Shown here in pieces: positions 18,050-32,336 of a DNA stretch of 44,536 nt. Under the pieces are notes generated by a model. That model did not search any database. It was given only the letters and a program-made list of their open reading frames with translations, and was not told where the DNA came from. This DNA is from an uncultured Eubacteriales bacterium (GTDB taxonomy: Bacteria; Bacillota; Clostridia; Oscillospirales; CAG-272): contig UQXK01000011.1 in assembly GCA_900544985.1 (NCBI GenBank), positions 1 to 44,536 of the forward strand. Direction: 5' to 3'. The translations under genes were made by a program, and so were the position numbers. The first letter of the stretch is position 1, and every line of letters starts with the position of its first letter.

Positions 18050-18856
18050 GTGAAAATCTATTACGGCAAAAGCGATATCAAGGCTCCTCCAAGCGAGCAC
18101 ACTGCAAACTTGGTTTCCACAGGTTTATGCCGATGTGAAAAAAACGATATGCTGACCCTGAGAAGAGAGGGGCGCGTAGATTGGTCTCTTTTCTACTGTG
18201 AACGCGGTTTTGTGGATTTCAACGGCACTCATATCCTTCCGGGAGAGATATGGATATATCCGCCCGCGGTTATGCAACGATATGCCATTTATCTGCAGGA
18301 TAGATCGGTTTATCATTATCTCCACTTTAACGGAAAACATATCGAGAAACTTTTCTGCGAGTTGCATATTCCCATTCAAGAGCCGATATGTTACGTCAAG
18401 GAAGATTTGACAGATATATTTCACAAGCTATCATTAAATGCCGAAGAAAACAGCTCTCTTTCCCGCCTTCGTGCTGAATATCTTATCTTATATCTGTTGT
18501 CAAAGCTTGCAAAGCCCTCTGAACAGGAAAAAAACTTTGGCGTTATGAAACGTATCACCGACCATATGGAGCACACTTTCGCCGCCCCGTATCAAGCGGA
18601 TAAATATGCCGATATGTTACATATCAGCGTCAGTAGATTTAATCACTTGTTTAAAGAAACTGTCGGAATTTCCCCATATACCTATTATCTTAACATCCGT
18701 CTCAATAACGCACAAGGTTTATTGGAGCAAAGCGATTTGAAAATCCATGAAATTGCTCAAAGCTGTGGATTCAAGGACGCGTTATACTTTACACAAGCTT
18801 TCAAAAAATACACCGGCTTTACACCGACAACATACAGAAAAGCAAAAAAACTGTGA
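18050..18856 (+). CDS. AraC-family transcriptional regulator (sugar-responsive), divergent from the GH4 gene
   Basis: C-terminal dual HTH (LFKETVGISPYTYYLNIRLNNAQGLL ... YFTQAFKKYTGFTPTTYRK). N-terminal cupin-like domain. GGAGGTG lies 7 nt before GTG at 18050. The track's upstream extension is unlikely. Confidence 0.75.
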   Translation: MKIYYGKSDIKAPPSEHTANLVSTGLCRCEKNDMLTLRREGRVDWSLFYCERGFVDFNGTHILPGEIWIYPPAVMQRYAIYLQDRSVYHYLHFNGKHIEKLFCELHIPIQEPICYVKEDLTDIFHKLSLNAEENSSLSRLRAEYLILYLLSKLAKPSEQEKNFGVMKRITDHMEHTFAAPYQADKYADMLHISVSRFNHLFKETVGISPYTYYLNIRLNNAQGLLEQSDLKIHEIAQSCGFKDALYFTQAFKKYTGFTPTTYRKAKKL

Positions 18857-18992
18857 TAAAGAAAAAATCCGACCTTATTTTCACTTCATTTGTGATTGTA
18901 AAGTCGGTTTATAATTTTTTCCGTATTTAATTACTATTCAAGGTTATATGTACATATATATGCTTTACTTGATTTCTTGCATATTCTGTTAA

Positions 18993-19038
18993 AAAATATA
19001 AATCAGACATACTATAAAAAGTATGTCTGATTTTATTT
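18993..19038. terminator. bidirectional rho-independent terminator ending the minus-strand 6-gene operon
   Basis: The sequence aaatcagacatactataaaaagtatgtctgattttatttttt is a 13-bp perfect stem, A-rich on the 5' side and T-rich on the 3' side. Confidence 0.75.
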
Positions 19039-19039
19039 T

Positions 19040-19492
19040 TTATTCTTGCTCTGACATAGTCATATCCGTCAACGGCTGTAAAAGCTTTACCATATCATCA
19101 TCAATAAGTTCATTAAACATAAATTGGACATAATCAACAACTGATTTGGCAGAGAAAATATTGATTGCAGAATGACTTACACGTAAATACTCGTTCTCGG
19201 GATTAATATTTACAGATAAAAACAAGCTCTCCGAATTAAAGGTATTGGAAAGGATAAGAGGTGTCTCACTTATAAAAAGCTTATCAAAAATAAAATCCAA
19301 GAAAACCATTCCGCTCTCGTAAGCATTTATGATCATATCGAATTCACCTTTATAATCATCGCAACTAAATCCTGCAACAGTAACTTTCAAACAATTTGGT
19401 TCAAAAGTCATTTGAAAATTTGGTTTCGGCCAATTCTCATATTGACCAAAATATTTTTTTAATTCGTTTTGGCACTCTAAAAGATTAAGCAT
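19040..19492 (-). CDS. hypothetical cytoplasmic protein (150 aa), last gene of the TIR/protease/SPFH operon
   Basis: ORF with an AAAGGA RBS, 34 nt after the protease stop. No recognisable domain. Confidence 0.5.
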   Translation of the reverse strand: MLNLLECQNELKKYFGQYENWPKPNFQMTFEPNCLKVTVAGFSCDDYKGEFDMIINAYESGMVFLDFIFDKLFISETPLILSNTFNSESLFLSVNINPENEYLRVSHSAINIFSAKSVVDYVQFMFNELIDDDMVKLLQPLTDMTMSEQE

Positions 19493-19526
19493 TTTTTATT
19501 TTTCCTTTCAATCAGTATTTTTAAAT

Positions 19527-20504
19527 TTATTCTCCATGTTCTTTACCACAATCAGGACAGTGTATTATGTGATTTTGGTTAGTTGCATTATTGCTTCCGC
19601 ATTCCGGACATGTTGCAGGTTTAATTTGACTCCACCCTTTCGCCCCTCTGTTTTCGATTATATAAGGACTATCTTTTCTTGATAAACACATATTTAACAA
19701 CTTATAGGCATAATTTGACGGAACTGCGTAATTTGTGCCGTTATCAAGGTCATTTTTATCAAAGCCGCTGTCTAAAACACCAATTACATTAGCATCTTCG
19801 TCAAAAACAGGTCCACCGGAATTACCATGAAAAGCCGCGCAATCAACTAAAAGATGAGGCTTGCCATCATTACGTCTAGGTCGTAATTTATCACTCAAAA
19901 TTCCCATTGAGATACAAGTTCCTTCTCCATTTGCATTTCCGACAATATAAATTGTTTGCCCTGTGCGAAGTTTGTTTGAATCCGCAAAATTAAGTACCCT
20001 TGCATTGTGAGGAACACGTTGAAGTTTCAAAACAGCAATATCCTGATACTCGACTTCTCTTGTGCTCCATCCGACAGCGACAACAGTGGCCGGAATTTTT
20101 TCACCGCATATTTTAGCTATCATATTATTGTAAATACGTCTGCCATCGGTAACACAATGTGAACAAGTTATCATAAAACCGCTGTTATGAACAAGAAAAG
20201 CACTACCACTTCCACAATCAAAGTATATCTCAGCAACTCCATTTACCACCTTGCTGTATAAGGCATCGCCCGCCATTTTCATTGACGGTGAATCCTTCTC
20301 GATCGGAAATGTTGGGGAGGTAATCATAGGTCTTCTTTCAGTAGTCGGATATGTCGGTGAATCATATGAAAAAGAAGGCGTCATATTAAGTTTTGAAGTT
20401 TGCATTTTTGAATTATTATTAGGATTTACAGTTTCCCCGCAATATGGGCAATAATAAGAATTTCCCATCGGCACCATCATCATGCCGCAAGAACTACAAT
20501 TCAT
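19527..20504 (-). CDS. trypsin-like (S1/chymotrypsin fold) serine protease flanked by N- and C-terminal zinc-ribbons
   Basis: Catalytic triad context: TCSHCV (His), QDIAVLKL (Asp), GNSGGPVF (Ser). CxxCG...CPYCG lies at the N-terminus and CPECG...CPDCG at the C-terminus. AGGAGG lies 5 nt before the ATG. Confidence 0.75.
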   Translation of the reverse strand: MNCSSCGMMMVPMGNSYYCPYCGETVNPNNNSKMQTSKLNMTPSFSYDSPTYPTTERRPMITSPTFPIEKDSPSMKMAGDALYSKVVNGVAEIYFDCGSGSAFLVHNSGFMITCSHCVTDGRRIYNNMIAKICGEKIPATVVAVGWSTREVEYQDIAVLKLQRVPHNARVLNFADSNKLRTGQTIYIVGNANGEGTCISMGILSDKLRPRRNDGKPHLLVDCAAFHGNSGGPVFDEDANVIGVLDSGFDKNDLDNGTNYAVPSNYAYKLLNMCLSRKDSPYIIENRGAKGWSQIKPATCPECGSNNATNQNHIIHCPDCGKEHGE

Positions 20505-20526
20505 AAAAACCTCCTTATTTAGAAAA

Positions 20527-22305
20527 CTAAAATACCAGTGAAGAAATTACGCATAGAGCTAATGTAATTATAAAAGCAAGTAAAAATCTTGATTTTAAAC
20601 TTGTCTCTTTTTCAGCTAAAATTCGTTTTATATCTCTTATAACAAGTAAGACGTTTATAATTATAGAAGCGCCTATTCCTATCGTGCTTAATGAATCCTG
20701 AAAAATCCAGCCCGGTATCAAAAATCCTAATGCAAATCCGCCAAAAGCCAAAGCTATTGTCAATATTATTTTTAATAATGACGATAACGTACTGCCAACA
20801 CCGGAAACTATATCTCCGACGCCGCTTGATTTTCTGCCGTACTTCATTACTTCTTCATGCTTTCTTTGAGCATCATTGGCCTTGTATTCTGCTTCTTTTT
20901 CAGCCTGTGCCTTGGTTTCGGCTATAGCATTATTGAGAGTCCTCTTATATGTATTATAAGTGGACATTTCACCCGGACAAGCTTTATCCAATTCACCCAT
21001 GGATAATGAAGTTTTACGAACTAAATCTTCATATTTTGCATTTAATTTTGACATCAAATCCTGTAATTTGTTTGACTTATCAGCTGTGCTAAAAGCGCCT
21101 TCAAAACCGCTATATGTTGTCCTTGTATAATTATCAGTCATTGCACGGGTATATAAATAAACGACTCTTGGATCTATTTCCGCTTGTTTATAAGCTATAT
21201 ACAGATCGATCTCCTTCATAATTGTCTTATAATTGGATTGTCCGCTTATAATCGAAGCATTCCACTCATATAATTTGTCCTCTAATTTGTCAGTACTCGG
21301 ATTATATGTTGGTGCATTGCCGCCAATTCCAAGACCACCTAATATACCTCCGAAAGATTTATTTTGAGAACCGACAGCTTTTATAAAACTCTTCTTTTTG
21401 ATAACACTGTCAATGGATTTTTGTAAATCTCCGAGAAAATCTACCGAGCCATATTCTACACCTTGAAATTTTCGCAGCTTCGCAGGAAGAGCATTAGCCT
21501 CCATACCGCCTAGCATAACAGGAATAACAACGCCGTCTTTCTTTTTTCCCGAATCGATCTGAGACAAAAATCTTGTCCATTCGTTTTTCACCCATTTTGC
21601 ATTAAAATATTCCTCTTTTGAACCGCAAACAAGCATAACTTTTGCCGTATCCAACGCATTATAGATATAAGGCTCATATTTTTTGCCTTGATGCTCAATC
21701 ATACTTTCACGGCTGAAAAACACGCTGTATCCTTTTTCTTTCAGCTTATGATAAAGACTGAGTAAATCGTTACTGTCCTGCGTTCTGGATCTTGACTCAT
21801 CATCGTTTTTGTCTTTATATGATATGAAAACATCATATGCGCCTTCTGTCTTCCTTACATTTTTCCATTCTGCCGCATTATCTTCGATAATGGAAATCTG
21901 CTTAAAATAATATTCTTTCTTTTCATCAGGGGCTTTTTCGCAGGCTTTTTTAAAGTTTGAGTTATTTCTCAAACTTTCTCCCGGAATATCGGCAAAAGTC
22001 GGAACCATCTTTTTGCCACCGTCATCGACATACACAATTTTATTTTGTGCCAAAAATTTCGCCCAGTAAGCCTCATAAGCATCAGTATGGTCAGCTATAT
22101 AAATATCCATCATATTTTCGGCAACATCGAATTCCATTTCTGAAATTTTAGCCATTGCTCTTTTTATTTCAGTAATATTATTTTCTTCCGCATTTTTAAC
22201 CTTGTATGTATTACCGCACCCCTCGCAATAATATGTATCGCCATTTATAATAACCATCTGTGTTCCACACGATGAACACGTCATCATTTCAGTTCTAAGT
22301 TCCAT
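20527..22305 (-). CDS. Zn-ribbon / TIR-domain protein with coiled-coil region and C-terminal 3-TM membrane anchor
   Basis: YDVFISYKDKNDD...KVMLVCGSKEEYFNAKWVKNEWTRFL is a TIR signature and includes a Glu at the catalytic-Glu position. N-terminal CSSCG...CEGCG ribbon. C-terminal hydrophobic helices. GAGGTGA lies 5 nt before ATG 22303-22305. The track's TTG extension is rejected. Confidence 0.75.
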   Translation of the reverse strand: MELRTEMMTCSSCGTQMVIINGDTYYCEGCGNTYKVKNAEENNITEIKRAMAKISEMEFDVAENMMDIYIADHTDAYEAYWAKFLAQNKIVYVDDGGKKMVPTFADIPGESLRNNSNFKKACEKAPDEKKEYYFKQISIIEDNAAEWKNVRKTEGAYDVFISYKDKNDDESRSRTQDSNDLLSLYHKLKEKGYSVFFSRESMIEHQGKKYEPYIYNALDTAKVMLVCGSKEEYFNAKWVKNEWTRFLSQIDSGKKKDGVVIPVMLGGMEANALPAKLRKFQGVEYGSVDFLGDLQKSIDSVIKKKSFIKAVGSQNKSFGGILGGLGIGGNAPTYNPSTDKLEDKLYEWNASIISGQSNYKTIMKEIDLYIAYKQAEIDPRVVYLYTRAMTDNYTRTTYSGFEGAFSTADKSNKLQDLMSKLNAKYEDLVRKTSLSMGELDKACPGEMSTYNTYKRTLNNAIAETKAQAEKEAEYKANDAQRKHEEVMKYGRKSSGVGDIVSGVGSTLSSLLKIILTIALAFGGFALGFLIPGWIFQDSLSTIGIGASIIINVLLVIRDIKRILAEKETSLKSRFLLAFIITLALCVISSLVF

Positions 22306-22319
22306 TTTTGTCACCTCAA

Positions 22320-23018
22320 TCAATATATTTTACAAGCTTTGCATTTATGGTTTCTTTCATCAAAAAGACGGGAAATATCTCTGGATAATGCTATTGCTGT
22401 TTCTTCATCAGCATTCTTCGCCGTTTCAAGTAATTGCAATATCTCAGTTTCCAAGTTTTCCGTGTCGGCTATACTTACAGGATCACTGTAAATATATTTT
22501 TTATATAATTCTCCGTATGATGATTTGATTTTTTCACTGGATCCATGTTTGCTTAGTATTTCCATCTGCAATGTTACGTTTTTTATAAATTTCGTATTAT
22601 CTATAACATTTGTTCTGACGCTTTCCACTTTTTCCTTATAAGCAAAACCTGAAAAAGCAAAAACAGAAAAAACGACAAGAACAATAACCTGCGGTATCAT
22701 GGCTAAGGCAAACGGTATTTTTTTGCTTATGCAAATAAATATAGTGGATATTATAAATTCAACGCCAAAATATATAGCGCTGTGTTTATAAAGAGGAATT
22801 CTAAATATCCAGTCGCACGCTTCATTAAGTCTCGAACGAAAGAAAATGAAAATCGTTTCTATAAATAAAAACGATATACATTCAAAAACAAAAGATACCC
22901 AAAACACCGAATTATGCCCCGAAAACCCAGCGATAGAAAAAACGGTTATCGCATAGATCGCCATAAAAATTGGGGGCAGTATAAACGATATACTTAATTT
23001 ATTCTTTTTGTCTTTCAT
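22320..23018 (-). CDS. integral membrane protein (4 TM + C-terminal soluble domain), hypothetical
   Basis: AGGAGG lies 5 nt before the ATG. The start overlaps the upstream gene's stop (ATGA). Four hydrophobic helices. Confidence 0.6.
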   Translation of the reverse strand: MKDKKNKLSISFILPPIFMAIYAITVFSIAGFSGHNSVFWVSFVFECISFLFIETIFIFFRSRLNEACDWIFRIPLYKHSAIYFGVEFIISTIFICISKKIPFALAMIPQVIVLVVFSVFAFSGFAYKEKVESVRTNVIDNTKFIKNVTLQMEILSKHGSSEKIKSSYGELYKKYIYSDPVSIADTENLETEILQLLETAKNADEETAIALSRDISRLFDERNHKCKACKIY

Positions 23019-23299
23019 GTTGCCTCCTTTTCAGGCACTTTTGCAGCACCGCATTTTTCACAAAAATTTTTATAGTTTTTTTCTCCGCATTTTTTGCAAA
23101 TCCACAAAATTTCTATCGTTTCACTTTGTTGCCCCATTGTCTTTTCCAGATTTGTTTCCATCGTTAAGGGCTGCGGTTTTGCCTCAATTGCTTTATTCAT
23201 TTTTTCCATACTTTCTCTGACAAAAGAGCGTCTTTCATCACAATTATTTTTTATCAAAGGCTCTCCTCTGGGAGAAAATTCAAATTTTTCGTATTTCAT
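23015..23299 (-). CDS. small zinc-ribbon protein (94 aa)
   Basis: C-terminal CKKCGEKN...CEKCG. GAGGTGA RBS. Translationally coupled to the downstream gene. Confidence 0.6.
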   Translation of the reverse strand: MKYEKFEFSPRGEPLIKNNCDERRSFVRESMEKMNKAIEAKPQPLTMETNLEKTMGQQSETIEILWICKKCGEKNYKNFCEKCGAAKVPEKEAT

Positions 23300-23323
23300 T
23301 TATTTCACCTCGCTTTATCATTT

Positions 23324-25303
23324 TTATTGTTCTTTTTCAGATTGTTTTTCTTTACCGCACTCGTTGCAAAATTTTCCTGTGTTTTCAGCTCCGCATTCGC
23401 ATTTCCATTTCTGCGGTTTTGATTTGCCACACTCGCTGCAAAACTTTCCTGTGTTTTCAGCTCCGCATTCACATTTCCATTTCTGCGGTTTTGATTTGCC
23501 GCACTCACTGCAAAAATTCCCTGTGTTTTCAGCTCCGCATTCACATTTCCAGGAATCATCTTTTGATTTATTCTCTGTTTTTTTGAATGAATTTTGTCTT
23601 TCATCATCGTTTTCGTTCATGACATTGTTGACTTCTTTGGCAACGTTTTTCCCTACTGCTTTTCCTATTTGCCAGTCCATTATCATGCCGCCCAAATTAT
23701 TAAATGTTCCCCCATTACCTCCGGAACCGTAAAATCCTCCACCCATACTTGGACCTCCTACTCTGCTGCCAACTTTACCGATAGCTTCTGCTCTTGCTAT
23801 ATCCACTTCTGCTCCCAGAACATCCTTGCCGTCATAATTCATTTCACGCATAGCCTGAGCATGACCAAGTTCTTTATGTATCTCTATGTCGGCTTCCGCT
23901 CCTTGCTTATAGATTTCGGAATCCGCTTCCATCATTCTTCTTGCATTTTCAAGCTGTAATTCAGTCATTTCAGCTTCTGTCTTATTGGCAAGTTCCGCAG
24001 AAGCTCTTATGGCATTCACGGTTGCCTCTCCTGAAACTCCCGCTACATTTAGATCATTTTGTCTTTGAATCTGATTACGTGCACCGGCAGCCGCCACTTC
24101 ATTAAGTTTGTCCTGTGCTTTCATAGTAACTATACCAAGATCCGTATCCTCCTGAATATTAAACGCCTCACGACGTCTTTGCAAATATTTTTGGAACGTC
24201 TCATCATTTTCGGGAAGCTGGATTTTTGATACAGCAAAATCAACAAGAGTTAATCCGAATTTCTCAAACTCCGTAGCTATAAGTTTCGAAATTATTTCTC
24301 CGAATTCCACAAGGTTATTTTCTATTACTACTATGTCAAGCTTGTTGTCCATTATCAAACGAGAAAAATTCTGTTTGATAATAGGCTGTATTCTGTTAAG
24401 CAAAATTTTTTTCGGAGGATTTTTTATAGGATCTATCCCGTATTTTCTCAGTTCATCAACATCCGGATTAAAAAGATCCATAGTACGAAGATTATCTGCA
24501 TTAGCGCCAAATTCCTTTAAGATTTGTCTGGAATTTGCTATCTGCAAACTAAGTTCTCCGCTAAGACCTATCTGAAAAGGTATATTTCCCATATTGGCAT
24601 CACGATAAGTTATACCGCCGATTCCCCATTTTATCCCTCTGATACAAGATGTATTAAAGAAATACACCTTAGACAAAAAAGGCGTTTGTCCATCAGGAGG
24701 TAATGCATTCATGCCAACTAACATAGGAATATTTTCTGTATTCAGAGTGTGAGTGCCCGGACCAAATAAATCAAGAGGTTGTCCGCCAAGTACAAAAACG
24801 ACTTCCTGAGAAGGTCCTACAATCAATTGAGAGCCCATATTTATCTTTTCAATAGTGTGCTTATATGAGAGAAAGTTAGAATCTCCTTCATATTTTATAA
24901 CACTGATAGAATTAGGATCATACTGACTGTTTATAGCGATTTCTCTTTTTACATCTATATGAGTACCGCATCCGGGACAATCCGCATATTGTTCGGAATT
25001 ACCGTTCAATCTGACAGATATACTCATATTACATTTTGGACATAAGATCTGTACACGTTTATTAAAAACATCATTTGCAGATTCATTTGCGGAAAATGTT
25101 TTTTTACAGTTTGAACACTTTATATTTTCCAAACCGAATTTATAAAGTCCCGTCTTTCCGCAATGCGGACACTCTATTTTAGCCATTCTCTCCTGTTTGA
25201 CATTTACAATTTTTCCGCAATGATCGCATTTTGCTGTCTTGCTGAATGTTGATACATAGATATCCGAGTTACAATCAGGACAAGTAATTATAATTTTTGC
25301 CAT
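23324..25303 (-). CDS. SPFH/band-7 (flotillin/YdjI-like, COG4260-type) protein with three N-terminal and three tandem C-terminal zinc-ribbons
   Basis: SPFH core (VVFVLGGQPLDLFGPGTHTL...). Coiled-coil/Ala-Glu-rich region. Gly-rich linker. C-terminus with 3x WKCECGAENTG(K/N)FCxECGK. N-terminus with CPDC/CDHC, CPHC/CSNC, CPKC/CPGC pairs. AGGAGG lies 8 nt before the ATG. Confidence 0.75.
   Translation of the reverse strand: MAKIIITCPDCNSDIYVSTFSKTAKCDHCGKIVNVKQERMAKIECPHCGKTGLYKFGLENIKCSNCKKTFSANESANDVFNKRVQILCPKCNMSISVRLNGNSEQYADCPGCGTHIDVKREIAINSQYDPNSISVIKYEGDSNFLSYKHTIEKINMGSQLIVGPSQEVVFVLGGQPLDLFGPGTHTLNTENIPMLVGMNALPPDGQTPFLSKVYFFNTSCIRGIKWGIGGITYRDANMGNIPFQIGLSGELSLQIANSRQILKEFGANADNLRTMDLFNPDVDELRKYGIDPIKNPPKKILLNRIQPIIKQNFSRLIMDNKLDIVVIENNLVEFGEIISKLIATEFEKFGLTLVDFAVSKIQLPENDETFQKYLQRRREAFNIQEDTDLGIVTMKAQDKLNEVAAAGARNQIQRQNDLNVAGVSGEATVNAIRASAELANKTEAEMTELQLENARRMMEADSEIYKQGAEADIEIHKELGHAQAMREMNYDGKDVLGAEVDIARAEAIGKVGSRVGGPSMGGGFYGSGGNGGTFNNLGGMIMDWQIGKAVGKNVAKEVNNVMNENDDERQNSFKKTENKSKDDSWKCECGAENTGNFCSECGKSKPQKWKCECGAENTGKFCSECGKSKPQKWKCECGAENTGKFCNECGKEKQSEKEQ
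23343..23542. repeat. three near-identical tandem 72-bp repeats (coding, 24-aa Zn-ribbon units of the SPFH protein)
   Basis: Directly visible: ...gcaaaa(t/c)tt(t/c)cctgtgttttcagctccgcattc(g/a)catttccatttctgcggttttgatttgcc... repeated three times with few substitutions. Confidence 0.85.
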
Positions 25304-25450
25304 AAATATCCTCCTATTTTTATCACTATATAATAACTAAGTTTAATGATCGCCATAATAAATATGACCGATGCCACTTTTATGATGATCCATGTCTTTT
25401 TTTCATTCACTTTTTCATGTCTTCCTCCATTTTTCATTTAAAATAAACAT

Positions 25451-25475
25451 ACCACATAATTTGTATTATGTAGTA
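25451..25475. repeat. left 25-bp inverted repeat of putative invertible DNA switch
   Basis: accacataatttgtattatgtagta is the perfect reverse complement of 25671-25695. Confidence 0.85.
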
Positions 25476-25490
25476 AAATGATATAGCGGT

Positions 25491-25519
25491 AAATAAAAAG
25501 GCGTGCTAAATTGCACGCC
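25491..25519 (-). terminator. rho-independent terminator (minus-strand orientation) inside invertible segment
   Basis: ggcgtgc-taaatt-gcacgcc stem followed by TTTTTATTT on the minus strand. It would stop read-through from the recombinase gene. A second, opposite-facing AT-rich hairpin plus T-run lies at 25525-25565. Confidence 0.55.
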
Positions 25520-25620
25520 ATAAAGACCAATGAAAAAATAAAATATTCATTGGTCTGTTTTTGTTATACCATTTTTCATCTTTTTCAGACAATAATCGTT
25601 CATAAAATGTATAAAATTTA

Positions 25621-25649
25621 TTGACACTATTTTGAATTTATGCTATTAT
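25621..25649 (+). promoter_or_regulatory. near-consensus sigma-70 promoter inside the invertible segment, currently facing away from the TIR/SPFH operon
   Basis: TTGACA - 17 bp - TATTAT. Oriented toward IR-R and antisense to the recombinase 3' end. Inversion would point it at the operon start (25303). Confidence 0.6.
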
Positions 25650-25670
25650 TTATTTGTGAATTTATATGTA

Positions 25671-25695
25671 TACTACATAATACAAATTATGTGGT
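25671..25695. repeat. right 25-bp inverted repeat of putative invertible DNA switch
   Basis: tactacataatacaaattatgtggt is the perfect reverse complement of 25451-25475. It lies 11 bp from the recombinase stop codon. Confidence 0.85.
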
Positions 25696-25705
25696 TTAGT
25701 TTTTC

Positions 25706-26545
25706 CTAAGTTCGCAAAAGTCCCAATTTTTCAACCTGACGACGATGCACCTCGCCGCTCTCCATAGTATAAATACGGGTTGTGTTTATGCTGCTGTGCC
25801 CAAGTATATCTGCAAGCCTTACGATATCTTTCTGTATACTGTAATATGTCCTTGCGAACAAATGTCTTAAATTATGCGGAAACACTTTTTTCTCAGATAC
25901 GTTCGCAGATTTGCAGAGCTTTTTCATATCAGACCATATATTCGATCTATCAAGAGGTCTTCCGTTCTTTGTAACAAAAATCGGTCCGCTTGATATTTTT
26001 TTCTTTTTTATATATTCTTTTAGCATCTTACAAAGTGCAGCAGGCAAAAATATGAGCCTACGTTTCCCCTTACAGATTATTTCTGTATTCTGTCGCGTCA
26101 AAGAATCAACGGTAATATGTTTAAGCTCGGAAATTCTTATTCCGCATGAACATATCGTCTGCATCAGAAAATACAACCGATCGTTTTTCTCTCTTTTTGC
26201 CGCCAATAAAAGACGTTCATACTCACTCTTTGTAAGCTCCTTATCACCGGATAAAAATATCTGCTTTTGAACTTTCAAAGTTTTTACTTTCAGTTCATGC
26301 CACTGCATAAAAACAAAAAAGCTATTAAGTGATGAGATAATAGAATTAACACTGGTCGGAGCATATTTTTCGGATATTTCCGACTTATATTTCAGAACAT
26401 CACTTTTATTAAACTCATTTGCACTAAGCCAATTCGCAAAAGTTAATATATCGTGCATATATTTACAAATCGTCGCGTGTGATTTTTCTTCATTTGAAAG
26501 ATGTTCTTTGAACATTTCTAAATTTTGATTTGAAATTTTTCTCAT
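25706..26545 (-). CDS. tyrosine site-specific recombinase (small, invertase/Xer-like)
   Basis: C-terminal catalytic motifs HNLRHLFA and GHSSINTTRIYT (catalytic Tyr). Length ~280 aa with no arm-binding extension. GGAGG...AAAGGGG RBS lies before the ATG at 26543-26545 (MRKISNQ). The track's longer 5' extension is unlikely. Confidence 0.8.
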   Translation of the reverse strand: MRKISNQNLEMFKEHLSNEEKSHATICKYMHDILTFANWLSANEFNKSDVLKYKSEISEKYAPTSVNSIISSLNSFFVFMQWHELKVKTLKVQKQIFLSGDKELTKSEYERLLLAAKREKNDRLYFLMQTICSCGIRISELKHITVDSLTRQNTEIICKGKRRLIFLPAALCKMLKEYIKKKKISSGPIFVTKNGRPLDRSNIWSDMKKLCKSANVSEKKVFPHNLRHLFARTYYSIQKDIVRLADILGHSSINTTRIYTMESGEVHRRQVEKLGLLRT

Positions 26546-26838
26546 TTGTTTAATCCCCTTTCTCCTCCATTTTATCATACTTGTATAAAGATTACAGCGC
26601 TCGTTAATCAACTCAGACAAAACGATGAGCAGACTTTACGACCACAAATAAAGTGGAAATAAAGTCTGATTTTTTGTTGTCCAAATCGCTTTTGCTATCC
26701 ATTTCTACAAATAAAGGTAATAAACCCCCAAAAATTTAAATATTTTTTCCTCAATAATATAACCTTTTGAGTGCACACAAGACCCGTTGATGCGTTTACG
26801 TCACAATACTTATTGGGTATAATCATAACATAAATGTT

Positions 26839-27231
26839 ATGGAGGAACGCACAGGGATGAATTCTTCATTAAGCAAAAAATCTTTTGGTGCACTTATACG
26901 GAAATTTCGTCTTAAAAACGGATATACTCAACAACAGCTTGCATTAAAAATCGGAATACAAACAAAATCCATAAGCTTTATCGAAAGAGGAATAAACTAT
27001 CCCTCTCCCGAAAATATTTTTAAGTTGGCACAGGTTCTTAATATATCTCTTGATGAATATATTTTCGGTTATTGCAAATTCGATCCCACTATCAATAATG
27101 ATGAAATAAATTCTATGTTTAATTCTCTCTCCAACGAAGACCTGCATTTTATGATAACTATGTTAAAAACTATTTATGGTCTACTTAATGAAAGGAAACC
27201 TGTCGTTAAAAATACCGGAAATAAAATATGA
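26839..27231 (+). CDS. XRE-family HTH transcriptional regulator (possible start at 26857)
   Basis: GYTQQQLALKIGIQTKSISFIERG is a Cro/C1 HTH. Divergent from the recombinase gene. Confidence 0.7.
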   Translation: MEERTGMNSSLSKKSFGALIRKFRLKNGYTQQQLALKIGIQTKSISFIERGINYPSPENIFKLAQVLNISLDEYIFGYCKFDPTINNDEINSMFNSLSNEDLHFMITMLKTIYGLLNERKPVVKNTGNKI

Positions 27232-27752
27232 ACTCTTTACAAGAAATAACTTTTGATGACGCATATAAAATGTTTCATCCCAAAATTCTGCAATATTGTT
27301 ATTATAAAACGAACCATAACATGAATATTGCGGAAGAGATATCTCAGGAAGCATTTTTAGCCTTGTATCTATCCTGGGATAAACTGTATTTCCACTCCAA
27401 AGCCCTGATTTTTTCTTGGCTTCACAAAACTGCCAAAAATATGTTGTCAAAATATTTCAGACAATTAAAGAAACTCAGTAATACAATAAGCTATGATGAA
27501 TATTTTTCCCAATATCAGGATATCGGAGTTTCCGATGATAATTTGGAAAACCTCGATCTTTCATATGAAAAATATATTGAAGAGATCAAAAAATTCCTTT
27601 CTCCCGAAGATTTTCAACTTTTTACATATGCCTGTATCGAGAAACTCTCTATCATTCAGATTTCCCTTCTCTTAAATATCAATTTTAATACTGCCAAGTC
27701 TCGCATAAGACGCATGAAATCCAAACTTAAACTCTTTTTATCAGATTTTTAA
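27228..27752 (+). CDS. ECF-type sigma-70 family RNA polymerase sigma factor
   Basis: Region-2-like (ISQEAFLALYLSW) and region-4 HTH (LSIIQISLLLNINFNTAKSRIRR). Size ~170 aa. Confidence 0.65.
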   Translation: MNSLQEITFDDAYKMFHPKILQYCYYKTNHNMNIAEEISQEAFLALYLSWDKLYFHSKALIFSWLHKTAKNMLSKYFRQLKKLSNTISYDEYFSQYQDIGVSDDNLENLDLSYEKYIEEIKKFLSPEDFQLFTYACIEKLSIIQISLLLNINFNTAKSRIRRMKSKLKLFLSDF

Positions 27753-27844
27753 TCCGATAAAAATTTTTTAAAATATATGCACCCAAAATTCATTTTTTGG
27801 TATTATATATATGAGTCCGATACGCGAGAAATTGAGGATACAAA

Positions 27845-28696
27845 ATGGAAACAAACAAAATTTCAAACAGTTCTAATCAAAAACAAATTGACGAACTTAT
27901 GAAAAAAATCGAAAAAGAGCTTAGTAAGCCGGAAAATAAAATCGACATGAAACTTGTCGATAGTTATTTTGAGCAAATCGAAGAACTGAATGGAGGGATA
28001 TGCAAAAAAACAGATTCCGAGCTGGCGAAAGGACTTAATCAAATAAAAGAACAGGGTGATCGAATAAAAAAGACTCTTCCTACCGTTGCTCCTATGAAAA
28101 CGCAACCAATCAAAAGAACTATTCCTCTACGCAAACGTCTTGCAATCTCATTTGCAGCTGTATTTTTGGTAATTGCGCTGTCATTCTCCGTTGCCGCAGC
28201 TTCTCTCGGCGGATTCAGTAAAGCATGGATATACATTTCAAATTCCGTAAAAGAAATTTTCGGCATGGATTCCGGCGAAACAGAAATGGACGGCATTACT
28301 GTTATAAAAGGCAAATACAGCAAAAAATACAATACTATTGAAGAACTTTTGTCAAATGAGAACTTCGATGATATATTATATCCTTCAAAATTGCCGGAAA
28401 ATATAAAAATAAAGTCCGTCTCTCAAATTCAACTGAACGACGAACAATATACCTTAACATTTCAATTTAATTCAGATAATGTGAGGCTTCGTATTAATAA
28501 CTACTACGAAATTAATCTCTCTCTATTATCCGACTATACAATATATCAAGCAAACGGAATAGAATTTTATATATTACAAAAAGAAGACGGATATTATTCT
28601 ATCGCCCAATATGACGGAAAAGAATATTCCGCAAACTGCAATAACTACGAAGATCTGATCTATATTTTATCTAACATGAAAGGCTATTCTAAATGA
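27845..28696 (+). CDS. putative anti-sigma factor (cytoplasmic N-domain, single TM, extracytoplasmic domain)
   Basis: Topology, and position immediately after the ECF sigma gene. Confidence 0.45.
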   Translation: METNKISNSSNQKQIDELMKKIEKELSKPENKIDMKLVDSYFEQIEELNGGICKKTDSELAKGLNQIKEQGDRIKKTLPTVAPMKTQPIKRTIPLRKRLAISFAAVFLVIALSFSVAAASLGGFSKAWIYISNSVKEIFGMDSGETEMDGITVIKGKYSKKYNTIEELLSNENFDDILYPSKLPENIKIKSVSQIQLNDEQYTLTFQFNSDNVRLRINNYYEINLSLLSDYTIYQANGIEFYILQKEDGYYSIAQYDGKEYSANCNNYEDLIYILSNMKGYSK

Positions 28697-29082
28697 AAAA
28701 ATTTTTTGTTTTTATAATATCCGCAGTCCTCATACTTTCTATATGTTTTTCATCGACTGCCGCAAATATCCAATATACATATAATTACGGTAATGTAAGC
28801 GTAATATTTAATGACAATACCCATTTTTCGGAAGCTTCCCGCGAACATATAGCCGATATACTTGTCGGAAAAATTGGAGCGGATTCCGAAATCGAACCAT
28901 ATGGCATAGCCTGTCTTTTCGGTCATAAATATGTTACGGAAAATGTAATCACAATAACTCATTGTGTAAGTGAGACACAACCGAAATGCCTGAAAGAAAT
29001 TTTCGAAATAAGCGAATGTTCACGTTGCGGAAAAACAAAGACAGAAAGAATTGATTACTATTATATCACTTGCTGCCCGTAA
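28693..29082 (+). CDS. secreted small cysteine-rich protein (signal peptide; 129 aa)
   Basis: N-terminal MKKFFVFIISAVLILSICFSSTAA signal peptide. Seven Cys in the C-terminal half. Start overlaps the anti-sigma stop. Confidence 0.5.
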   Translation: MKKFFVFIISAVLILSICFSSTAANIQYTYNYGNVSVIFNDNTHFSEASREHIADILVGKIGADSEIEPYGIACLFGHKYVTENVITITHCVSETQPKCLKEIFEISECSRCGKTKTERIDYYYITCCP

Positions 29083-29108
29083 TATAGAATAATAAAAATA
29101 TAACAAAA

Positions 29109-29146
29109 ACAGGAAACAAATTGTTCCCTGTTTTTTTGTTTTTTAA
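29109..29146 (+). terminator. rho-independent terminator after the ECF-sigma operon
   Basis: aacaggaaacaaattgttccctgtttttttgtttttt is an imperfect stem plus a long T-run. Confidence 0.6.
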
Positions 29147-29356
29147 TAATGACCGCACAAATGTTTTTTATATTTTCCGGTTGATAAAAAGTGACTTATT
29201 AAAAACTTTTTCAAATACCGTACCGTCATTTTGCTTTTCAGTCAAATCATCTATATATCCGCCGCGTACAACAGTGCGAAGAGCTCCGTGAAGTAGTTAT
29301 CTAACAAGTGTGTATTCCCTGTCGTCTTATAAGCATATATATAATATGTACTCAAA

Positions 29357-29698
29357 TTATACTGAATATGGGCGTCTGTAATTTTCAATAATTTTTTCAA
29401 ACAAAAAATTCTCTTCCGTTGAAAGTTTACTTTCCGAAATACTTTTCACTTTGATCAAAAGGGATATTTCCTCCGGCGTCATATATGCACGGTCCATCGT
29501 GTAATCGCCTACCACATATACTCCTCCGCCATATTTCCCTGCTTTTGTATCCAGAGGCATCATAAAAGTAAGTTCAAAAATATCTCTCTGTATTGTTCTC
29601 ACGGAAACACCGAATTTTTCGGCAAGAAAAGACATTGTCGCGTGCCTTTTTCTGCAAAGGTATTTCATGATTTCCAAACGTCTTTCGGCTGTCCCCAT
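29357..29698 (-). CDS. small HTH-domain protein (DeoR/WYL-N-terminal-like HTH), solitary paralog of 43852-44220
   Basis: MGTAERRLEIMKYLCRKRHATMSFLAEKFGVSVRTIQRDI. Clear paralogy to the protein at 43852-44220 (shared MGTAERR, GVSxRTIxRDI, GxYxGGVYVxxDYxMxRxYM). Confidence 0.6.
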   Translation of the reverse strand: MGTAERRLEIMKYLCRKRHATMSFLAEKFGVSVRTIQRDIFELTFMMPLDTKAGKYGGGVYVVGDYTMDRAYMTPEEISLLIKVKSISESKLSTEENFLFEKIIENYRRPYSV

Positions 29699-29835
29699 AA
29701 ATCACTTCCTTTCGCACAAACAAAAACATGACAAACAGCCAAACCAGCCACCTGTCATGCTCATATCTTAAAAATCGTGCGATGTACGAAGTGTTTTTAT
29801 CTTAAATTTTTATACTTTTCCAATAACTGAAAAAG

Positions 29836-30039
29836 TCAAACTATTATTGCAGAATCGTCTATTTTGTAAACTGTATTCTCATTTGAAATCTTTACTGCCA
29901 AAACATTCTTGCAGTTTTTGCATTTTATGATTATATCAGCTTTTTCGGAATTACTGTCCGATAATTTTGATATTGTTATCGTTTTATTTGAATCACAAGC
30001 TCTTCTGTTGCATATAGGACAAGGATACTCTTTTATCAT
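29836..30039 (-). CDS. small zinc-finger protein, phage Mu Com-like (67 aa)
   Basis: CPICNRRA...IKCKNCKN are two CxxC pairs in a ~65-aa protein. The call is tentative. Confidence 0.35.
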   Translation of the reverse strand: MIKEYPCPICNRRACDSNKTITISKLSDSNSEKADIIIKCKNCKNVLAVKISNENTVYKIDDSAIIV

Positions 30040-30113
30040 TTAATTCCTCCAATTTATTCGCAATTTTGCGAACACGCACGGCGAAAAATATATGGTGAAC
30101 AAACACCATATAT

Positions 30114-30872
30114 TTAAGTATATCGATATTTATTTTTAATAATGCCCAAATTAAGCATTCTTATCTGTACAGCCTTGCAAGATACCTGAAAAACATTTGC
30201 AATATCAGCGATAATACTGTTCAAACGCTTTTTCTCGGAAAATGTTTCGGGAACCGAAATATATTTTCCGCTTATTCCGTTCTTGCTCATTATCTTGTAC
30301 GTATAATTCACAAATACATTCATCGGCATAAGCAACGATGCCGCAAGAGCATCTGCCTGCCATTCGATCCAATCGTTATCCGTGATATTTTTCGTCTTAT
30401 TCAGTTCTACACTACGGCACGCTATATACGAAGACGAATCGCCGACCCGATTTCTTAAATTCTCGTTTTTTCTGCCATAATACGCTTTGTGCAAAATAAA
30501 ATGTGCCCCCTCATGCATCTGCGTATAACGTCGTCTGGTATACTGATCTATATTGTATAACGCAGGTGTGATCAGAATATTTCCAAAAGTCTCCTCCAAA
30601 ATGACAGGTTTAAACATATCATCATATGAAGGAATCTCAACGATATCGCTCATAACGATAAGTCCCAAAATTTTGGAGCCGAAAGGACCTATATATTTGC
30701 ATTTTACAACAAGACCGAGATAGTTTTCCAAAAAATCAACAGTATCCAAAGATGTCGGACGTTCAAGGTTTTGCGGAGCATATTCTCGGATAACACTGTC
30801 TGCAATATTTTCAATGTCATTTTTGGAGAGAATATAAAGACCGTTTTCTTTTTGAACGTACTCTGATTTCAT
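30114..30872 (-). CDS. ImmA/IrrE-family metallo-endopeptidase (DUF955)
   Basis: HEGAH is an HExxH motif, in YTQMHEGAHFILH context. Immediately downstream of an XRE gene. Confidence 0.7.
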   Translation of the reverse strand: MKSEYVQKENGLYILSKNDIENIADSVIREYAPQNLERPTSLDTVDFLENYLGLVVKCKYIGPFGSKILGLIVMSDIVEIPSYDDMFKPVILEETFGNILITPALYNIDQYTRRRYTQMHEGAHFILHKAYYGRKNENLRNRVGDSSSYIACRSVELNKTKNITDNDWIEWQADALAASLLMPMNVFVNYTYKIMSKNGISGKYISVPETFSEKKRLNSIIADIANVFQVSCKAVQIRMLNLGIIKNKYRYT

Positions 30873-30894
30873 AAAAAGGCACCTCAATAATACT

Positions 30895-31284
30895 TTAAGA
30901 GTTTTTTTGTTTGATAAACTTTATAAGTTCCATCCAGTCTTCATCGGTAAAATTATTGTCTTTTGCAGTTCGAAGCGCCATGCGTGCAGACGGCAATGAT
31001 TCAATATATTCATTGATATCGCTGTGCTGTCCGTTTTGGCTTATGCCTGCCAAATCGTAAAAAGTATTCAATTCATCGGTATCGGTAATTTCCAAGGCAC
31101 TTGCAAAAGTTTCGAGAAATTTTTCCGGGGCATGACGATTTCCCTTTTCTATATCACATAAATAAGCCGGTGATATCTTCACTTTTTCGGCAAAACCTCT
31201 TAAATTAAACCCAAGTTCCTCTCTTCTTTGTCTGACATATTCACCGAACGGTGAACTTACTTCCTTCATAACGGTATTCCCCAT
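30895..31284 (-). CDS. XRE-family HTH regulator (ImmR-like partner of ImmA)
   Basis: GFNLRGFAEKVKISPAYLCDIEKGNR is an HTH. Its stop is 7 nt from the ImmA start. Confidence 0.7.
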   Translation of the reverse strand: MGNTVMKEVSSPFGEYVRQRREELGFNLRGFAEKVKISPAYLCDIEKGNRHAPEKFLETFASALEITDTDELNTFYDLAGISQNGQHSDINEYIESLPSARMALRTAKDNNFTDEDWMELIKFIKQKNS

Positions 31285-31344
31285 TAAATTATCGCTGCAC
31301 TAATAATATAAATCGACAAAACTATTTTTATCGCGCATTGTTCG

Positions 31345-31360
31345 CAAGTTTGCTAACTTG
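31345..31360. promoter_or_regulatory. palindromic putative operator upstream of the ImmR-like gene
   Basis: CAAGTT-tgct-AACTTG sits ~60 bp upstream of the ImmR-like start. Confidence 0.3.
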
Positions 31361-31475
31361 ATAACACAATTATACAATATTTTCCCAATTATGTCAAGTG
31401 AACTATACTTCATGTTTATAAATATAATAAAGAAACTCATCACTTTCGCATTAACAAAAGTGATAAGTCCTTTTA

Positions 31476-32276
31476 TTATAATTCAGGTAAAATTTCAGGG
31501 AAAGAAAGCACTGATTTATCAGACGAATCGATTGCTATTATATATTTTTCGGACAATTTCGCATAACTTAATTTCGGAGCTTCACAAATAACTTTTTCAA
31601 AAAGTTTTTTTGCAGTGTCCTTATCTCCCGAATAATATTTTATAGCAGCAGTGTAAAAAACCTGACTCATCTTAATAATATTACTTGTTTTTGAAGTTTG
31701 TTTGTTAAATAAATCTTCTAATATTTTTTTGCATTCATCGAAATCTTCTTTTAAATAGCTTTCGAATAATTTTATAGTATTATCTTTTATTTTTTTCGCG
31801 CTATCCTTTTCATAGTTTCTGAATTTTTCACAAACTGTTTTTAATTTCTCATTGTCTCCAATATCAAAATAGACTCGCGAAAGTATCAAAAAATAATCAT
31901 ATTTATATTTTAAACTGCGCTTTCCTTTAATTACATTTGTGCACATATTTACTGCCATTTGATAATTTCCGGAATAATAGTAGTAAAGTACACGATATAA
32001 TTCACTCCTGCACATAATACATATTTTAGAATTTATTATCAAACCAAATTTTTCCGGATCCATATCTTTACACAAAACCGGCATATATAATTTTGCCTCT
32101 AATACCATGGTAAAAACAAGAAGCATAAAACCAAGAAAAATCAATAAAACAAGATATGCCCAAAATTTATCAAAAAAAATAATTTCCAATGCAATTAGCG
32201 ACATCATCAATAGAAAAAATATTGTCATCAAAACAAAATATTTCCTAATAATACTTTTAGCACTCTTATTATTCAT
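31476..32276 (-). CDS. multi-pass membrane protein with TPR-like C-terminal region; putative immunity protein for the RHS toxin
   Basis: Position directly downstream of the RHS C-terminal toxin domain. Three or four TM helices. The start is probably at MNNKSAKS. Confidence 0.5.
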   Translation of the reverse strand: MNNKSAKSIIRKYFVLMTIFFLLMMSLIALEIIFFDKFWAYLVLLIFLGFMLLVFTMVLEAKLYMPVLCKDMDPEKFGLIINSKICIMCRSELYRVLYYYYSGNYQMAVNMCTNVIKGKRSLKYKYDYFLILSRVYFDIGDNEKLKTVCEKFRNYEKDSAKKIKDNTIKLFESYLKEDFDECKKILEDLFNKQTSKTSNIIKMSQVFYTAAIKYYSGDKDTAKKLFEKVICEAPKLSYAKLSEKYIIAIDSSDKSVLSFPEILPEL

Positions 32277-32336
32277 AAATCCCCCTATAAAATTATTGCA
32301 CAAAAATTTATACCACAAAATCACCTATGATTTTAA

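Follow-up and report, generated by a model that had tools for sequence, protein, structure and literature searches.

What would a bacterium gain from an operon that joins a flotillin-like scaffold, a TIR protein and a serine protease behind an apparently invertible promoter? The question is posed by a six-gene operon (G1 to G6) on a 44,536-nucleotide (nt) contig of an uncultured Eubacteriales bacterium (GenBank assembly GCA_900544985.1, contig UQXK01000011.1; the whole of this stretch is referred to as the window). A preliminary description, made from the sequence alone, had taken the operon for a candidate new defense or abortive-infection system. Here, we find that the SPFH protein G1, the four-transmembrane (4-TM) protein G3 and the zinc (Zn) ribbon-TIR protein G4 represent a core that is conserved across Clostridia. 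We tentatively read the operon as a phase-variable, membrane-associated TIR effector system, a variant of this Clostridia SPFH/4-TM/Zn-ribbon-TIR module with a role in conflict or immunity, and consider that this reading falls a little short of an even chance of being correct.

A conserved SPFH, 4-TM and Zn-ribbon-TIR core in Clostridia

We carried out a pattern scan of one genome per species (~185,000 species genomes), fetched 80 loci and searched all of their open reading frames (ORFs) with the window proteins. SPFH relatives of G1 were found in 394 species-representative genomes, and all 80 fetched loci belong to Clostridia, including Ruminococcus, Oscillospiraceae, Lachnospiraceae, Acutalibacteraceae, and Christensenellales; the protein collection holds ~20 full-length G1 homologues. 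A homologue of G3 immediately follows the SPFH gene in 71 of the 76 loci with room for it and is found nearby in 4 more. Genes for a Zn ribbon-helical-TIR protein, corresponding to the N-terminal half of G4, occur in 64 of the 80 loci and in 37 of the 40 with long flanks on both sides. By this count, TIR-bearing loci hold one to four copies, and the TIR genes are co-directional with the SPFH gene in 108 of 110 cases. In some loci that seem to lack TIR, the contig end truncates a TIR-family gene (L018 and L029) or other Zn-ribbon proteins take its place. Independent look-ups of three G1 homologues each returned a TIR-SPFH-4-TM arrangement.

The protease is a recurrent but optional add-on to this core (L018, L016, L068, L095, L004, and L091), and G2 and G6 were found only in the lineage of the window. 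Thus, SPFH, 4-TM and Zn-ribbon-TIR proteins form the conserved core, and the six-gene set is not a conserved unit; the preliminary description, which had treated all six genes as one system, is borne out for the core but not for the full set.

Structure of the operon and its conservation among strains

The six ORFs are co-directional on the minus strand, running from 25303 to 19040 (Table 1), and the intergenic gaps from G1 to G6 (24, −4, 14, 22, and 34 nt, in order) agree with the overlapping or closely spaced junctions described before. The AGGAGG-type ribosome-binding sites (RBSs) attributed earlier to almost all of the genes are present at G1, G3, and G5; G2 and G4 have GAGGTG instead, and the site of G6 is weak. 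Judging by sequence, G4 most likely starts at ATG 22305 (592 amino acids [aa]; GAGGTG RBS, as called in relatives) and not at the overlapping TTG 22323. Profile searches and a hydropathy scan upheld all of the initial SPFH, TIR, S1 protease, Zn-ribbon, and membrane assignments.

The complete locus of recombinase, switch, and six genes, with order and flanks kept, is present in two other strains (L001 and L093), whose proteins are about 95 to 98% identical to those of the window (98% for G4 in L001; 95% for G1 in L093). Short contigs of more diverged lineages keep partial order at 44 to 71% identity: a 52%-identical G1 followed by a G2-like start (L092), a 44%-identical G4 followed by the start of G5, and the C-terminal part of G4 followed by G5 and then G6, the last 71% identical. 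The GC content is 0.30 to 0.37 across window positions 19000 to 33000 versus 0.40 to 0.46 in the flanks, which is consistent with a horizontally acquired island.

G4 carries a TIR domain predicted to be enzymatic

In G4, a TIR_2 match (E value, 1.3e-13) covers residues 165 to 289, preceded by a Zn ribbon (C16/19/33/36) and followed by three C-terminal hydrophobic segments. The Glu of the KNEW motif, singled out beforehand as a residue to mutate, is E248 (codon 21580-21582, in WVKNEW; numbered from TTG 22323), and it proved invariant in both alignment A2, composed of 61 paralogues from SPFH loci of other genomes, and alignment A4, composed of 58 sequences. Also invariant in the 61 paralogues are the Cys of the Zn ribbon, several positions in the TPR-like linker, and the W244-V-x-N247-E248-W249 motif. 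In a single-domain search, E248 aligned, weakly (E value, 0.019), with the WSKFE Glu (WxxxE) of the oyster TIR-STING structure 6wt6; we take it to be the equivalent of SARM1 E642. AlphaFold modeled residues 50 to 310 of G4 with confidence, and the structures nearest to its TIR domain are SARM1, TIR-STING, SPARTA TIR-APAZ, SpbK, and MyD88. Together, the invariant Glu, its alignment with the TIR-STING Glu, and the nearest structures indicate that the G4 TIR domain is of the enzymatic kind, as far as alignments and models can tell. A TIR-family profile run against PDB sequences was of no use for the catalytic site, as it returned only leucine-rich-repeat (LRR) surface proteins through the variable C termini.

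More than 1,800 protein clusters (90% identity) match G4 over its N-terminal 300 residues, nearly all of them with other C termini. Among the 61 paralogues, all contain TIR_2 and ~44 contain TPR, with RCC1 propellers in 16, DUF6273 in 13, and TM2 or ankyrin in a few. Proteins of this family start with a Zn ribbon, followed by TPR, TIR, and again TPR; about half then have at least one hydrophobic segment, and RCC1, DUF6273, or BspA-LRR comes last. Such paralogues form arrays with variable C termini (TPR, RCC1, DUF6273, LRR, and Ank). In a set of 113 paralogues, about half have a hydrophobic segment after the TIR-TPR part, and ~19 end, as G4 does, in two to five transmembrane (TM) segments.

A putative invertible switch upstream of G1

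The operon had been said to lie under a phase-variable promoter, and its upstream region has the layout of an inverton, with inverted repeats around a promoter and a site-specific recombinase gene adjoining. The 24-nt exact arms bound a 243-bp invertible element; no such pair is expected by chance (0 expected), and they are the sole exact inverted repeat of ≥15 nt with 80- to 500-nt spacing in the window. Each arm is itself a dyad (CYACATAAT-TTGT-ATTATGTRG), which, read as sequence, resembles a tyrosine-recombinase core site. The recombinase gene sits 12 nt from the switch and in an equivalent position in L001 and L093; its ORF reaches back to TTG 26620, and ATG 26545 has a GGAGGAG RBS and fits the 279-aa call in relatives. 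Its NCBIfam matches are to XerA/XerD-like recombinases and, weakly, to tyrosine-type DNA invertases.

Within the element, a sigma-70-type promoter (25621-25649, plus strand; TTGACA-17-TATTAT with TG; 11/12, the best match in 18800-26900) points outward from the operon and reads into the recombinase gene in the antisense direction, while an intrinsic terminator on the minus strand (25519-25500) and a second hairpin face read-through coming from the recombinase gene. Since the promoter points away from the operon and the terminator lies on the operon strand, the sequenced state is OFF. Inversion would set the promoter ~185 nt upstream of G1 and, by symmetry, reverse the terminator; the predicted ON junction is TTGTATTATGTAGTA joined to AAATGATATAGCGG. 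We inspected every retrievable copy of the switch (L001 and L093) and scanned JGI metagenomes with the arm sequence, which yielded one contig (L094). All four copies, including that of the window, are OFF, and the opposite orientation is absent among them. The sequence supports the phase-variable promoter claimed at the outset; the inversion is predicted rather than seen. A blastn search of the switch region against the plasmid collection gave nothing beyond a 72-nt match of 79%.

As a side observation, the OFF-state promoter, being antisense to the recombinase gene (25706-26545, minus strand), could couple recombinase expression to switch orientation; expression of fimE is likewise tied to the orientation of its switch.

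In L094, a full gene for a 361-aa BspA-type LRR lipoprotein (L094 59-1144) lies between the equivalent switch and the operon leader. The window retains a remnant of this gene at 25380-25425. A 49-aa ORF with a TM segment (25288-25437) was considered as a seventh gene. It is probably not a gene, since the leader is the remnant of the lipoprotein gene intact in L094; in addition, a leader A6/A7 tract that varies by strain breaks its frame in L001 and L093.

Similar switches recur at other loci. The search of the 80 loci covered exact inverted repeats (≥15 nt, with arms 80 to 500 nt apart). In L082 (56-335), which is from another species, 22-nt arms lie directly upstream of a TIR-SPFH-4-TM operon and enclose a TG-extended promoter directed at it; they are identical to the window arm at 18 of 24 positions, and the half-sites are shared. 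L090 (6059-6895) has a gene for a 209-aa serine recombinase (Resolvase; E value, 1.5e-28), 21-nt arms around 100 bp, and then TIR, SPFH, and 4-TM genes. L054 (3522-3854) offers a weaker inverton candidate, and L054 and L087 contain several further long inverted repeats. A recombinase gene by the TIR gene of L047 was rejected as part of an inverton, as no inverted repeat flanks it. The presence of two unrelated recombinase types at one kind of cluster suggests, on this sequence comparison, that ON/OFF expression matters for the SPFH-TIR cluster.

Table 1. Features of the operon and its upstream switch in the window
Feature	Position	Strand	Description	Basis or detail
G1	23324..25303	-	Soluble SPFH (Band_7_1, YdjI/SamI-like) scaffold protein	Pfam, hydropathy, and alignment
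G2	23015..23299	-	94 aa, one C-terminal Zn ribbon (C68/71/80/83)	Lineage-specific
G3	22320..23018	-	4-TM protein with cytosolic helical C-terminal domain	Four hydrophobic segments
G4	20527..22305	-	Zn ribbon, TPR-like helical, TIR, helical/TPR-like, three C-terminal TM helices	TIR_2
G5	19527..20504	-	Cytosolic S1 serine protease, HtrA-like catalytic domain, Zn ribbons at both ends	Trypsin_2, E value 2e-26
G6	19040..19492	-	150 aa, YbjN/type III secretion chaperone fold	Remote homologues and model
Terminator	19000..19033	.	Bidirectional intrinsic terminator closing the operon	14-bp stem, T runs on both strands
Leader	25304..25451	-	Switch to G1	Start (7 codons, MEEDMKK*) and 3' end of a BspA-type LRR lipoprotein gene, otherwise deleted
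Arm, operon side	25452..25475	.	Inverted-repeat arm	24 nt, exact
Invertible interior	25476..25670	.	195 bp	Promoter on plus strand; terminator and second hairpin on minus strand
Arm, recombinase side	25671..25694	.	Inverted-repeat arm	CCACATAATTTGTATTATGTAGTA on minus strand; 24 nt, exact
Recombinase	25706..26545	-	Tyrosine recombinase (XerC/D-like), presumed invertase	Pfam Phage_integrase, E value 4.7e-29, and Phage_int_SAM_1

G1, G2, and G3 are a scaffold, a small Zn-ribbon protein and a presumed membrane anchor

G1 matches PF13421 (Band_7_1) with an E value of 1.5e-29 and 103.6 bits (cut-off, 24), and PF01145 with 25 bits. From the N to the C terminus, it has three Zn ribbons, the SPFH domain, a coiled-coil/Gly-rich region, and three WxCxCG..FCxxCG repeats; its 12 N-terminal and 12 C-terminal Cys lie in six CxxC/CxC pairs, and the twelve N-terminal ones are invariant in a 19-member alignment. 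No TM segment was found in G1, G2, G5, or G6 by hydropathy scan. The C-terminal Zn-ribbon units of G1 are encoded by a 72-bp tandem repeat (23344-23559). The copy number of this repeat differs by strain, with three units in the window and four in P0121/L093 (L093 4001-6052); homologues have two to five.

The ribbon of G2 is of the G1-repeat type, and DNA at 23061-23091 is a diverged copy of the G1 repeat unit (family D2); phmmer with G2 in other loci matched only the C-terminal repeats of G1. G3, the presumed membrane anchor of G1, has no match in Pfam, NCBIfam, or PADLOC. Its family, with 77 homologues, conserves a G-P that follows TM2, an SDPxS motif in the cytosolic domain, and RNxxCKxxK at the C terminus.

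G5 is an S1 protease and G6 resembles peptide-binding chaperones

The Ser in GNSGGP and the Zn ribbons at both ends reported for G5 were confirmed, and the triad (H116/D155/S229, in TCSHCV, DIAVLKL, and GNSGGP) is intact and kept across six homologues from SPFH/TIR loci. Between an N-terminal Zn ribbon like that of G4 and the C-terminal one, G5 has a 65-residue Pro/Ser-rich linker, which is absent from the related proteases of loci without G6; no PDZ domain, signal peptide, or TM segment was detected. Against TIGR02037 (Do/HtrA), G5 scored 83.8 bits (cut-off, 416) and is thus outside the full-length HtrA/DegP family. G5-like proteases with a matching N-terminal Zn ribbon and an intact triad adjoin SPFH/TIR genes in distant lineages (L018, L016, L068, and L095); the one that follows the SPFH and 4-TM genes in L018 is 31% identical to G5 over its full length.

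G6, listed at first as a protein of no known kind, has no Pfam match itself, PF10722 (YbjN) included. A word-indexed search gave close copies only, which made it look like an orphan; an exhaustive phmmer search of 1.84 billion representatives overturned this, returning 64 remote relatives of ~140 aa, and 25 of 39 aligned relatives match Pfam YbjN (PF10722). The AlphaFold 2 model of G6 has a mean predicted local distance difference test score (pLDDT) of 94.6 and a predicted template modeling score (pTM) of 0.88. With this model, Foldseek gave ExsC, SicP, SycE, CesT, YbjN, and DR_1245 as the best matches (probability, 1.0; TM-score, 0.55 to 0.66). The YbjN matches of the relatives and the fold of the model thus mark G6 as a peptide-binding-chaperone-like protein. 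It shares the fold of YbjN and the class I type III secretion chaperones ExsC, SicP, SycE, and CesT; no secretion system is present here.

Comparison with known systems

We compared the operon proteins with PADLOC 2.0.0, NCBIfam, and PHROGs and found no system-specific match; PADLOC gave only generic protease-domain matches (RT-Protease_XI and LmuA) and weak Zn-ribbon matches. Full-text literature searches on SPFH or flotillin together with TIR or phage defense returned nothing relevant. The initial remark that the combination is not a named system therefore still holds. Thoeris, CBASS, and SPARTA were rejected because their partner genes are lacking (no ThsA, cyclase, Argonaute, or STING). 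For Thoeris in particular, PADLOC gave no match, the operon contains no SIR2, SLOG, or Macro domain, and NCBIfam Thoeris type III ThcB4 scored 22 bits (cut-off, 220).

Like Thoeris ThsB, TIR-STING/CBASS, SPARTA, SpbK, and SARM1, G4 has a TIR fold with a catalytic-type Glu, and its nearest structures are NADase TIRs; activation of the effector through oligomerization is the presumed common logic of the TIR immune systems. Unlike in those systems, the TIR domain of the window is predicted to be membrane anchored and is linked to an SPFH scaffold; neither PADLOC 2.0.0 nor the papers searched contain this combination. To our knowledge, the bacterial TIR systems described so far are cytosolic.

The nearest studied relative of G1 is Bacillus subtilis YdjI/SamI. 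This SPFH protein is soluble, carries a Zn finger at its C terminus, depends on the membrane proteins YdjG/H, and recruits PspA (PMC8581546). G1 is likewise a soluble Band_7_1 protein with a low-complexity/Gly-rich region and C-terminal Zn fingers, its gene adjoins one for an integral membrane protein, and, as in PspA-YdjGHI, Zn-ribbon proteins belong to the set. In contrast to PspA-SamGHI, G1 has three additional Zn ribbons at its N terminus and repeats the C-terminal one, its partners are TIR proteins and a protease, and the window's cluster is patchy in distribution and putatively phase variable; no PspA match was found in the six operon proteins or in the top 25 families of 132 sampled neighbors. 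An SPFH protein is also encoded with a membrane partner and a protease in HflK/C-FtsH and stomatin-NfeD. However, G5, a cytosolic S1 protease that carries Zn ribbons, is neither FtsH nor a ClpP-like protease of the NfeD type and is optional, and G1 has no TM helix of its own.

The switch shares short inverted repeats, a promoter, a recombinase gene, and an OFF state with the promoter facing away with fimS (FimB/FimE), the RecV switches of Clostridioides difficile, and Bacteroides invertons. It differs from them in that the target is a TIR/SPFH operon and not fimbriae, flagella, or capsule, and in that one orientation has been seen.

Proposed function and alternative readings

Innate immunity relies on TIR domains in bacteria, plants, and animals alike. 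Under our favored reading, a phase-variable TIR effector system, a tyrosine recombinase would flip the 243-bp element and so place the promoter upstream of G1, and inversion between OFF and ON would leave only part of the population expressing the system. G3 may bring soluble G1 to the inner membrane face, and G1 would oligomerize there into a platform, as suggested by YdjI/SamI biology and the strict adjacency of the two genes. On this platform, Zn-ribbon clients, namely membrane-anchored G4 and cytosolic G5, could dock or be organized, and G2 would serve as a further Zn-ribbon adaptor. Such docking is suggested by the N-terminal Zn ribbon that the clients share and by their co-occurrence. 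A perturbation of the membrane or envelope, e.g., phage attack, might then let the TIR domains self-associate and cleave NAD+, as the invariant Glu and the SARM1-like fold would allow, and depletion of NAD+ or an ADP-ribose-derived signal would arrest the cell. More speculatively, the protease could be a second effector or an activator, restrained by G6 through binding to its 65-residue unstructured linker. A role in defense or abortive infection is plausible by analogy, given the NADase-type TIR domain, the diversification of paralogues, the patchy distribution, the phase variation, and some conflict-gene neighbors. The last comprise, in the window, an HTH/Peptidase_M78 pair that lies with regulators in the low-GC stretch and an RHS-repeat protein beside that stretch; the pPIWI-RE system adjoining the L009 cluster; and mobile-element recombinases, SIR2_2 proteins, and several PADLOC-family proteins among sampled neighbors.

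Several observations weigh against this proposal. SamI acts in membrane-stress signaling and not in immunity; Zn-ribbon docking and the G5-G6 interaction are guesses; the TM and topology calls come from a simple hydropathy scan; and every copy of the switch is OFF. The operon proteins lack system-specific matches in the databases searched. No SPFH relative was found in viral contigs (IMG/VR), and the TIR family occurs there on only two contigs, which carry the same cluster. We sampled 132 neighbors of the 80 loci at random. Most are ordinary or surface-protein genes; by Pfam family, resolvase/serine recombinases, BspA-LRR, dockerin, and RCC1 are the most frequent. Two neighbors match SIR2_2, and several match the PADLOC families mad3/8, Orf5, RecD-like, PDC/HEC candidates, and mREase_IV. 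As this survey had no control set, no enrichment is claimed, and no conserved extra partner (PspA, ATPase, or nuclease) appeared among the neighbors sampled. TIR-family genes also stand alone by housekeeping genes, one of them after rpoA-rplQ (L097 10001-12667; L098 10001-13135), with no SPFH gene within 10 kb in either locus; such a setting, unusual for a defense gene, suggests a more general cellular role. Finally, the transmembrane-receptor layout of many paralogues allows nonimmune readings.

The same receptor-like layout keeps open a bolder version of the immune proposal, which we regard as somewhat unlikely: that the SPFH/4-TM pair, together with arrays of Zn-ribbon-TPR-TIR-TM-ectodomain proteins, is a bacterial counterpart of raft-organized Toll-like receptors. 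Surface sensors may detect an outside cue (phage adsorption, a competitor, or a host factor) and relay it through the membrane as their enzymatic TIR domains cluster on a flotillin-like platform. The window operon, in which a TIR-3TM effector is combined with a chaperone-controlled protease and phase variation, may be a variant that has no sensor. Many G4 paralogues resemble animal Toll-like receptors in combining a cytosolic TIR domain with a single TM segment and an outer domain rich in repeats (LRR or RCC1 propeller). The likeness is one of analogy only: the TIR domain is N-terminal, so that the order is reversed, the enzymatic-type Glu is kept, and G4 has no ectodomain. If true, this would be a new class of bacterial transmembrane innate-immune signaling.

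Among the nonimmune alternatives, we consider it unlikely that the operon is an envelope-stress or membrane-homeostasis module, in which G1 and G3 would form a sensor platform like SamI with SamG/H and the TIR proteins would couple membrane state to physiology. The Band_7_1 domain, solubility, Gly-rich region, and C-terminal Zn fingers of G1, its consistent pairing with a membrane protein, and the adjacency of TIR-family genes to housekeeping operons would all fit such a module, and SamGHI is presented as a membrane stress sensor complex in a preprint (bioRxiv 10.64898/2026.02.06.704340). However, neither the operon nor the top 25 families of the 132 sampled neighbors include a PspA/ESCRT-III gene, the distribution is patchy (394 of ~185,000 species genomes), and arrays of paralogues with variable C termini together with ON/OFF phase variation are atypical of housekeeping stress systems.

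It is also improbable, in our estimate, that the operon encodes a phase-variable surface receptor or adhesin platform, in which single-pass Zn-ribbon-TIR proteins with RCC1, DUF6273, or BspA-LRR ectodomains would be clustered in microdomains by the SPFH and 4-TM proteins for host or substrate interaction or cell-cell signaling, phase variation then providing antigenic or adhesive variation. This is what the hydrophobic segment followed by RCC1, DUF6273, or LRR_5 in about half of the 113 paralogues would suggest, as would the frequency of LRR_5, RCC1, and dockerin proteins among the sampled neighbors and the BspA-LRR lipoprotein gene between switch and leader in L094; invertons of gut bacteria often control surface genes (PMC11892184). 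Yet G4 has just three C-terminal TM helices and no ectodomain, the operon adds a cytosolic protease and a chaperone-like protein, and the invariant catalytic Glu argues for enzyme activity over mere docking. A receptor role would not preclude an immune one.

That the six genes came together by chance or form a decaying island without a common function, as the confinement of G2 and G6 to one lineage, the deleted-gene remnant in the leader, and the uniformly OFF switch might suggest, is extremely improbable, given ORFs that are intact, tightly spaced, and equipped with RBSs, 95 to 99% conservation across three strains, order kept at 44 to 71% identity, core linkage across 80 distant genomes, and intact catalytic residues.

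The three-part core, then, occurs in at least 394 Clostridia species, many of them from gut or rumen, and is absent from PADLOC 2.0.0 and the searchable literature. If the favored immune reading is right, it would link flotillin-like membrane platforms to NAD+-based defense and would explain a TIR family of gut Firmicutes of more than 1,800 clusters (90% identity); if the module is not immune, it would still represent a conserved use of an enzymatic TIR domain in membrane signaling. The window provides a compact test case, with one TIR gene, mutable catalytic residues (E248 in G4 and S229 in G5), and a putative natural ON/OFF switch.

Other genes near the operon and its relatives

Divergent from the operon, four genes at 26839-29082 (plus strand) encode an HTH_3 protein, a sigma-70-like protein (regions 2 and 4), and two proteins without Pfam or PHROG match; this block is syntenic with the operon in L001 and L093. 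Beyond it, 30114-31284 (minus strand) encodes a helix-turn-helix (HTH) protein of 129 aa and a Peptidase_M78/ImmA-IrrE-like protein of 257 aa, a pair typical of regulatory switches of mobile elements or prophages. About 7 kb from the operon, 32337-38060 (minus strand) encodes a 1907-aa RHS-repeat protein (RHS_repeat, 4.5e-137; four Big_2; DUF6531); with the small ORFs that follow it, including 31476-32324 (minus strand), it resembles a polymorphic-toxin locus with candidate immunity genes. At the locus of one of the three G1 homologues looked up independently (L009 6181-12842), a complete pPIWI-RE system (REase, Z, and X/MID/RNaseH) lies directly downstream of the TIR-SPFH-4-TM cluster.

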